From Octopus vulgaris (Eukaryota), in assembly GCA_951406725.2 (NCBI GenBank), contig OX597818.1:124186001-124250000 (forward strand): a stretch of DNA of 64,000 nt, given 5' to 3'. The notes under the pieces are model-generated. The model was not told the origin of the DNA and did no database searches. It was given only the letters and a program-made list of their open reading frames with translations. How positions within the stretch are numbered: position 1 is the stretch's first letter; every line of letters starts with the position of its first letter. Shown in pieces: positions 43,305 through 44,364 of this stretch. Made by a program: the position numbers and the translations under genes.

Positions 43305-43335
<31 letters not shown>

Positions 43336-43478
43336 AGAGAGTGACCACCATGTGGTCTACTCTAGCACTAAAAATAGATCCGCAAGGTTTCAGCCACAAA
43401 AGAAATTGTTTTCGTTGAAAGTTAACACTACTACCAGAGCAAATGAACAGGGCAAATAAACATAACAAAATGTAGATT

Positions 43479-43558
43479 AGTTCGAGACAATTGTTTCGCT
43501 ATTAATAAATTATGTGGTTTTACTTACATAAATTTATCTGTAGCTCCTCAGCCGAACC
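43479..43558 (-). ncRNA. Type I hammerhead ribozyme, intact
   Basis: Exact reverse complement of 44024-44103. Confidence 0.85.
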
Positions 43559-44023
43559 CGTCCAGAATACAATTTACCCGATCGCACGCTAGACTTCACC
43601 ATAACGATAAACGCACGTGCGGTCGAGTCGATTGTACTCGCTGTTATAATTCAAGTGCCCCTGTCATCGCCCGCCAAAATTCACGGAAACAAATACTACA
43701 TCCAAAATTAAATGCAACATAATTACAATCAACCGATAAGGGTGAGGAAATTGAGTACTAATTTAATAGCACATTTATTTACCACCAAGTGGCTTAGTGC
43801 ATAAAAAACCCGGATTACGACACATTTTATACATAAATATGAGAGTGACCACCATGTGGTCTACTCTAGCACTAAAATGGATGTAGTATTTGTTTCCGTG
43901 AATTTTGGCGGGCGATGACAGGGGCACTTGAATTATAACAGCGAGTACAATTGACTCGACCGCACGTGCGTTTATCGTTATGGTGAAGTCTAGCGTGCGA
44001 TAGGGTAAATTGTATTCTGGACG

Positions 44024-44103
44024 GGTTCGGCTGAGGAGCTACAGATAAATTTATGTAAGTAAAACCACATAATTTATTAATAGCGAAACAATTGTCTCGA
44101 ACT
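44024..44103 (+). ncRNA. Type I hammerhead ribozyme, intact
   Basis: GGTTCGG-CTGAGGA-GCTA-cag-ATAAATTTATGT-loop-ACATAATTTAT-taa-TAGC-GAAA-CAATTG-TC^-TCGAACT: canonical core, 7-bp stem I, long stem II, palindromic stem III, and a GUC site with predicted cleavage after 44096. Confidence 0.88.
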
Positions 44104-44364
44104 AATCTACATTTTGTTATGTTTATTTGCCCTGTTCATTTGCGCTGGTAGTCGTGCTAACTTTCAACGGAAACAATTTCTTTTGTGGCTGAAACCTTGC
44201 GGATCTATTTTTAGTACTAGAGTAGACCACATGGTGGTCACTCTCTTATATTTATGTATAAAATGTGTCGTAATCCGGGTTTTTTATGCACTAAGCCACT
44301 TGGTGGTAAATGGATGTACTATTAAATTAGTACCCAAATTTCTCACCCTTATCGGTTGATTATA

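Follow-up and report, generated by a model that had tools for sequence, protein, structure and literature searches.

Architecture of the fold-back locus

The stretch of Octopus vulgaris DNA analyzed here (64,000 nucleotides of contig OX597818.1, hereafter the window) carries a fold-back of two inverted arms set between (TA)n tracts, with one hammerhead motif in each arm (Table 1). As the first-pass annotation had described it, a unit of 504 bp is present once as a copy of slightly more than unit length and once inverted. Repeat search and alignment show that the left arm exceeds one 504-nt period by about 39 nt, the stretch 43335-43373 being found again at 43839-43877, and the unit counts are 1.08 for the left arm and 0.96 for the right. 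Terminal direct repeats are absent from the fold-back by alignment, and its flanks are not inverted. The unit was correctly read as non-coding: the four ATG open reading frames (ORFs) of at least 50 aa in the fold-back are all largely TA/CA repeats. No ORF with reverse transcriptase (RT) and GIY-YIG domains is present in the unit, and a tblastn search with two such proteins gave no match in the 64-kb window.

The seven differences previously counted between the arms over a long segment of about 370 bp were found again, and a second paired segment (43724-43845 against 44243-44361) adds seven more, for a total of 14/484 (2.9%). None lies within the ribozyme, the hammerhead regions at 44020-44106 (+) and 43476-43562 (-) being letter-identical, as had been reported. 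Since the probability of finding no difference in 80 nt is 0.10-0.22, this identity is no sign of selection, in agreement with the earlier caution that the differences were too few to prove it. Comparison with 47 other loci shows about 11 of the 14 to be rare or missing there; the changes are thus mostly private to the window copy, which indicates that they arose after insertion, and a derivation of the two arms from different subfamily templates was rejected on the same count. The fold-back belongs to a non-coding repeat family with many members and is a copy in decay.

Nearby, a U6 snRNA-like copy with several substitutions, a putative gene or pseudogene, lies at 41952-42057 on the + strand (84.7 bits), and tandem arrays built of a 178-184-bp SINE-like unit and a 101-bp CT-rich minisatellite occupy window positions 20305-20864, 42111-42445, and 46228-47151.

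Table 1. Features of the fold-back locus, in window coordinates
Feature	Position	Strand	Remarks
(TA)n tract, left	43229-43335		Likely insertion target
Left arm	43335-43877	- (hammerhead sense)	543 nt; 3' end at fixed site A (~43335); 5' end at inversion point
Type I hammerhead motif with extended helix I	43472-43565	-	Predicted cut after C43486; 111 bits with a model built from the family itself
Inversion junction	43877-43878		Two 5'-truncated ends joined; 0-1 nt overlap
Right arm	43878-44360	+	483 nt, 5'-truncated; passes site A and stops at fixed site B
Type I hammerhead motif	44017-44110	+	Predicted cut after C44096; from sequence, fold, and covariation
Helix I (+ copy)	44024-44030/44097-44103	+	GGUUCGG/UCGAACU plus 4-bp extension
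Core (+ copy)	44031-44037; 44085-44088	+	CUGAGGA; GAAA; read from sequence
Helix II, long (+ copy)	44038-44084	+	~16 bp with internal loops
Palindrome ACAAUUGU, helix III (+ copy)	44088-44095	+	Read from sequence
Tail between end sites A and B	44250-44360	+	~105-110 nt; terminal on right arm only
(TA)n tract, right	44361-44444		

Hammerhead structure and conservation

The motif had been called a canonical type I hammerhead. This holds for the core, with CUGAGGA, GAAA, and the GUC site all in place, and not for helix II, which is long and interrupted rather than 4 bp. Folding of one arm by itself predicts helices I and II, with probabilities mostly above 0.9. The monomeric helix III has only 2 bp and is predicted to be unfavorable; between two molecules, the palindrome ACAAUUGU is predicted to form an 8-bp duplex of -6.4 kcal/mol. 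The hammerhead has a GC fraction of 0.36, and the isolated 96-nt motif is predicted to fold modestly better than shuffled sequences (z -1.9). The Rfam search that had been recommended returned no hammerhead in the window at the gathering threshold, nor in 43300-44400 at E values up to 10; a MIR6217 match in the latter interval was discarded, as it lies below threshold and reflects the long hairpin. The remark that a read-through transcript of either strand would carry an antisense copy ahead of its own ribozyme is accurate. When the whole fold-back is folded as RNA, helices I and II drop to a predicted probability of 0.0 on both strands, and the inter-arm duplex is predicted at about -735 kcal/mol.

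Conservation was assessed in 48 distinct copies (48/55) from an alignment picked by the core pattern. Paired cells made up 95.9% of the helices, versus 29-38% in slid controls. Two-sided changes occurred at 6/26 pairs, five of them in helix I (5/11 helix-I pairs), and pairing was kept across subfamilies; the count of two-sided pairs taken alone was matched by 43/500 shuffles. Position 7 of the core is free to vary (13/32). Among 27 loci obtained from a whole-unit search, the core and palindrome varied at 9/572 cells versus 788/11,902 elsewhere, the cells not being independent of one another, and when only singleton changes were counted (3/572 in the core versus 170/11,902 in the rest, p 0.09) the core was not significantly better kept. 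Covariation in helix I, together with a core that is preserved between subfamilies of about 73% identity, suggests that the source lineages have been under selection for the ribozyme. Such selection, as read from these alignments, appears between subfamilies and is absent from view in the inserted copies.

A large repeat family with near-identical arrays

Other genomic copies, whose absence would have counted against the first-pass annotation, are plentiful. A DNA search of the octopus genome itself (2.8 Gb), in which the best 40 of 2,138 candidates were scored, gave at least 85 matches at 82-100% identity. The exact core pattern of the window's subfamilies matches 38 times genome-wide, and a relaxed core pattern has 2,266 exact matches, compared to none for the reversed control; copy numbers from exact patterns are lower bounds. 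Most of the matches listed belong to a sister subfamily that is about 73% identical to the window unit. Its units of about 534 bp (531-535 nt) are lined up head to tail, with as many as 13 consecutive hammerheads, and an inverted arm often follows the array. The tandem copies that a genome-wide search had been expected to reveal are therefore present, and head-to-tail repeats also occur at two further loci (L007 and L054).

Across eight sister arrays the mean within-array identity is 97.8-100%, and a comparison of units in sister arrays gave 0-3 substitutions per unit. The window copy, whose arms are 2.9% apart, is by this comparison not among the youngest, and its description as a young element needs that qualification. 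Among 59 full units, the mean difference is 0.34 substitutions when a pair comes from the two opposing arms of a single insertion (32 pairs, four loci), versus 11.5 when it comes from different insertions. At three of the four loci there are no differences between opposite arms, while the nearest other locus differs by 0.9-2. Both the 504-nt unit and the sister unit are predicted to be strongly self-paired as circles (z -4.1 and -7.3, respectively; 25 shuffles).

Contigs from runs presumed to be RNA, although not recorded as such, overlap parts of both units, with strand, ends, and level indeterminable from them and the join of a circle looking the same as a tandem junction. In one of these runs (X1, likewise presumed RNA) the summed depth over the sister unit is in the thousands, which we do not take as evidence of expression. 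A literature search, with subscription papers and Repbase mostly outside its scope, found no published description of this hammerhead repeat family.

Insertion anatomy

The ends of individual insertions were examined in 71 loci, of which 41 have two divergent arms, none has convergent arms, and 30 have a single arm. The sample is non-random, being drawn from best DNA hits, exact-pattern hits, and selected arrays on contig C1, so 41/71 does not represent a genome-wide frequency. Twelve duplicate loci, two loci of another family (L115 and L133), and one that runs off its stretch (L092) were dropped from the tally, and some pattern-search loci were swapped for longer stretches of the same place.

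The 3' ends fall at two fixed sites. In the window's subfamilies, site A lies about 155 nt and site B about 264 nt after the cut site, and in the sister family the corresponding distances are about 160 and 290 nt; the tail from A to B measures 105-130 nt across the family. Among the 41 two-arm loci, 33 end in one A and one B and none in A+A or B+B (binomial p 2e-10), and eight have one end that was not called. A (TA)n tract adjoins 95/112 element 3' ends, within which target-site duplications are illegible. The arrays have the same fixed A and B 3' ends, and on both arms their 5' ends are scattered. Of the 5' ends at 18 loci in the window's subfamilies, 2/36 lie no more than 3 nt from the cut site, which is not clearly above chance. 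Where the arms meet, overlaps are mostly 0-4 nt and most joins link unrelated unit positions; in a few loci (L130, L044) the junction is near-palindromic, both arms halting at the same unit position.

Autonomous Penelope-like elements in the octopus genome

A GIY-YIG fragment beside one copy of the repeat led to a very young Penelope-like family (family 1), many copies of which retain a 775-aa open frame. The octopus genome contains three young Penelope-like families with RT and GIY-YIG domains, all of which insert in (TA)n. Pfam matches to RVT_1 and GIY-YIG were obtained in families 1 and 2, with RVT_1 of family 1 just under the cut-off. These autonomous elements share the fold-back layout: 17/19 two-arm loci of family 1 and 5/6 of family 2 are A+B, the others being unassigned, and both two-arm loci of family 3 (2/2, read by eye) are A+B as well. 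Their tails measure 46, 36, and about 40 nt, respectively. As a separate observation, family 1 shows a very recent burst, in that among the best 150 of 17,710 candidates scored, 150/150 GIY-YIG sequences are 100% identical at the protein level.

The link to RT/GIY-YIG ORFs that had been anticipated from a genome-wide search was not borne out in sequence. Neither unit has significant similarity to any of the three autonomous families (best E 0.035-0.23) or to 30 further GIY-YIG loci, for which the best 150 of 6,136-17,710 candidates were scored per search. A partner search with a relaxed hammerhead pattern (32 matches, control 4) yielded several other small hammerhead families, similar to the unit in the core alone. 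Pieces of Penelope-like ORFs beside L027 and L029 were considered as a partner and rejected, as they are separate insertions 600-850 bp away. A Penelope-like partner is therefore proposed on insertion anatomy and not on sequence.

Comparison with known systems

Non-LTR retrozymes were defined, and their circles shown in mussel, by Cervera and de la Pena (2020; PMC7229834), and have since been argued to be non-autonomous Penelope-like elements (Li, Clavereau and Pollet, 2026; bioRxiv 10.64898/2026.07.22.740005). As these animal elements are described there, the octopus unit resembles them in being non-coding, low in GC, and self-paired, with one type I hammerhead and with monomers, dimers, and multimers in the genome. 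Further likenesses are a helix III of 2 bp with a tetraloop, the invertebrate type, and co-occurrence with autonomous Penelope-like elements. At 504-535 nt the octopus units exceed the 170-400 nt given in PMC7229834, but are inside the 51-972 nt of Li et al. (2026). Helix II is long, unlike that described for non-LTR retrozymes, and divergent arms with fixed A and B ends are common in octopus, whereas the word "inverted" is absent from the main text of PMC7229834. For the octopus unit, a matching pLTR was not found among the loci searched, while Li et al. (2026) report that 24/57 Xenopus families matched known elements, mostly Penelope-like. They also report cleavage in only 1/9 Xenopus retrozyme dimers. 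With its 1.08 and 0.96 units, the window copy lacks the two consecutive hammerheads by which these authors recognize an active element.

Penelope-like elements provide the other half of the comparison. Dimer-type hammerheads with a long helix II have been described in their pLTRs, along with hammerhead pairs on opposite strands 100-700 bp apart in Schistosoma mansoni (Cervera and de la Pena, 2014; PMC4209133). Other accounts describe 5'-truncated copies in inverted orientation, a tail of 30-40 bp at one of the ends, and a bias for (TA)n (Arkhipova et al., 2013, PMC3846280; Craig et al., 2021, PMC8557442). The octopus hammerhead shares a palindromic helix III and a long helix II with the pLTR hammerheads. 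Like the endonuclease-containing (EN+, Neptune-like) elements of those accounts, the octopus family combines a partial tandem with an inverted 5'-truncated copy, a tail on one arm, and a (TA)n target. It differs from them in that the unit has no ORF and frames none, repeats up to about 13 times, and has a tail about three times longer. Closer in some respects are the Chlamys elements of the MRC1 type (PMC8557442), which are non-autonomous, Penelope-like, and present as head-to-tail multicopy insertions. As described in that source, however, Chlamys elements generally share 3' sequence with an autonomous partner, which was not found for the octopus unit among the loci scored, and most of the non-autonomous ones have no canonical hammerhead, whereas the octopus unit has one.

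Opposite-strand hammerhead pairs and inverted arms are thus already in print (PMC4209133; PMC8557442; PMC3846280), and the single locus is ordinary, one of thousands of copies. What the octopus family adds is a strict end rule, a long tail, and identical arms, by which the Penelope integration model can be put to the test. The family joins retrozymes to Penelope-like machinery by insertion anatomy, the link having previously been one of co-occurrence and pLTR similarity (Li et al., 2026). The rule of one A and one B end, common to the three intact autonomous families, puts numbers on the remark in that literature that the tail is often only at one end.

Origin of the fold-back

The fold-back is very probably the product of one insertion of a non-LTR retrozyme, that is, a non-autonomous Penelope-like element, copied into (TA)n by RT/GIY-YIG proteins. 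The first-pass annotation had similarly proposed a non-autonomous Penelope- or retrozyme-like element copied from a multimeric or circular RNA, a proposal now supported by the thousands of matches, the near-identical arrays, the (TA)n target, and the fixed 3' ends. Under this model, tandem source arrays would be transcribed, and neighboring hammerheads would pair via the ACAAUUGU palindrome and cut once per unit, each cut monomer then closing into a circle. A Penelope-like protein would cut both strands of a (TA)n tract, and cDNA would be primed from both target ends on the same RNA, at site A from one end and at site B from the other. Each cDNA may travel a variable distance round the template, from less than 1 to about 13 units, before the two growing ends are joined, which would leave head-to-head arms with a tail on one side only. 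Against this explanation stand the lack of significant similarity between either unit and the three autonomous families, and the tail length, 105-130 nt as compared to 36-46 nt for the autonomous elements and a published 30-40 nt. The cleavage of so few Xenopus retrozyme dimers (Li et al., 2026) and the dispensability of hammerhead cleavage for insertion in vitro (PMC11167929) weigh against it as well.

A doubtful but serious alternative is a Penelope-dependent element with an uncut, linear multimeric template, in which the ribozyme is a passenger and unequal crossover may also lengthen arrays once they are inserted. The scarcity of 5' ends near the cut site fits such a template, as does the passage of the cDNA through many cut sites. 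In addition, hammerhead cleavage was not required for insertion in vitro (Frangieh et al., 2024; PMC11167929), and a homogeneous source array would equally yield identical arms. On the other hand, a passenger ribozyme does not sit well with the covariation of helix I and the preserved core, and fixed 3' ends combined with scattered 5' ends on both arms look like one insertion event rather than later crossover. It is also improbable that the inverted arm came from self-priming or template switching of one cDNA, as in the antisense-template model of PMC3846280; the few near-palindromic junctions would suit it, but most junctions join unrelated positions with minimal overlap, and the A+B outer ends in 33/33 assignable cases would demand a second rule of a single primer.

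The first-pass annotation had further suggested that a long dsRNA hairpin gates self-cleavage in a host transcript, which would make the fold-back a regulatory device. Although an antisense copy precedes the sense ribozyme in both read-through directions and the hairpin is predicted to sequester it, this reading is very improbable. The layout is an ordinary product of the family, the commonest in the sample, shared with autonomous elements, and described in print; the arms bear mostly private changes, and the identity of their ribozymes is expected by chance. A duplex of the predicted stability would be an off state more than a switch. That the inversion is an assembly chimera, also raised earlier, is scarcely credible. 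No contig of four runs spans the junction, but short-read contigs break in repeats, and the arms differ from each other, end at different fixed sites, and lack inverted flanks, with the same layout in 40 other loci.

The back-to-back layout is therefore likely a routine scar of Penelope-like enzymes, not a purpose-built RNA switch. The window copy itself is probably a dead end in neutral decay, as it carries a single ribozyme on each strand and pairing between the arms is predicted to bury both. With one ribozyme per strand and fewer than two units per arm it would be unable to release a monomer, and since the two ribozymes lie on opposite strands, they could not form a dimer within one transcript.

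It may also be, although this goes beyond what we would call probable, that the insertions record Penelope integration itself: one complex would prime both cut ends on one circular RNA at two different, fixed start sites, rolling round it up to about 13 times, with the retrozyme as a parasite recognized by RNA shape instead of sequence in common and its start sites 105-130 nt apart. Frangieh et al. (2024) describe two internal reverse-transcription start sites that set the tail, and cleavage of both strands. If this is true, inverted arms, one-sided tails, and tandem arrays would all come from one mechanism, and a small RNA and intact candidate enzymes from the same genome would be at hand for testing integration. 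The one-A/one-B rule gives the in vitro system used there a prediction that can be scored by counting.

Two-ORF organization and other hammerheads

Two overlapping ORFs are present in all three autonomous families: ORF1 is 430-535 aa long, and ORF2, of 775-781 aa and with RT and GIY-YIG, lies in the -1 frame, as at L123:4221-7747, L171:1841-5685, and L274:1768-5471. ORF1 had no Pfam match in the two families tested. Each of the three families has a U UUU UU(U/A) heptamer that is in phase with ORF1 and no more than about 15 nt from where the ORF2 frame opens; it is identical in 17/17 family 1 stretches, and no strong structure was seen downstream of it. The heptamer and the overlapping frames suggest -1 ribosomal frameshifting, a candidate mechanism that a literature search did not find for Penelope-like elements, the canonical members of which are described as single-ORF (PMC8557442). 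This arrangement is possibly more novel than the fold-back itself.

Other small hammerhead families recovered with the relaxed pattern share the ACAAUUGU helix III (L211-L240, L133). One of these loci, L234, has two inverted hammerhead pairs, and a further inverted pair, with the palindrome AUCAAUUGAU, lies at L188:7114-7205. Variant hammerheads also accompany the autonomous elements, in family 1 with core CCGAAGA and palindrome AGUACU (L123:3976), and in family 3, as read by eye, just upstream of ORF1 at L271, with core UUGAUAA and palindrome ACAUGU.
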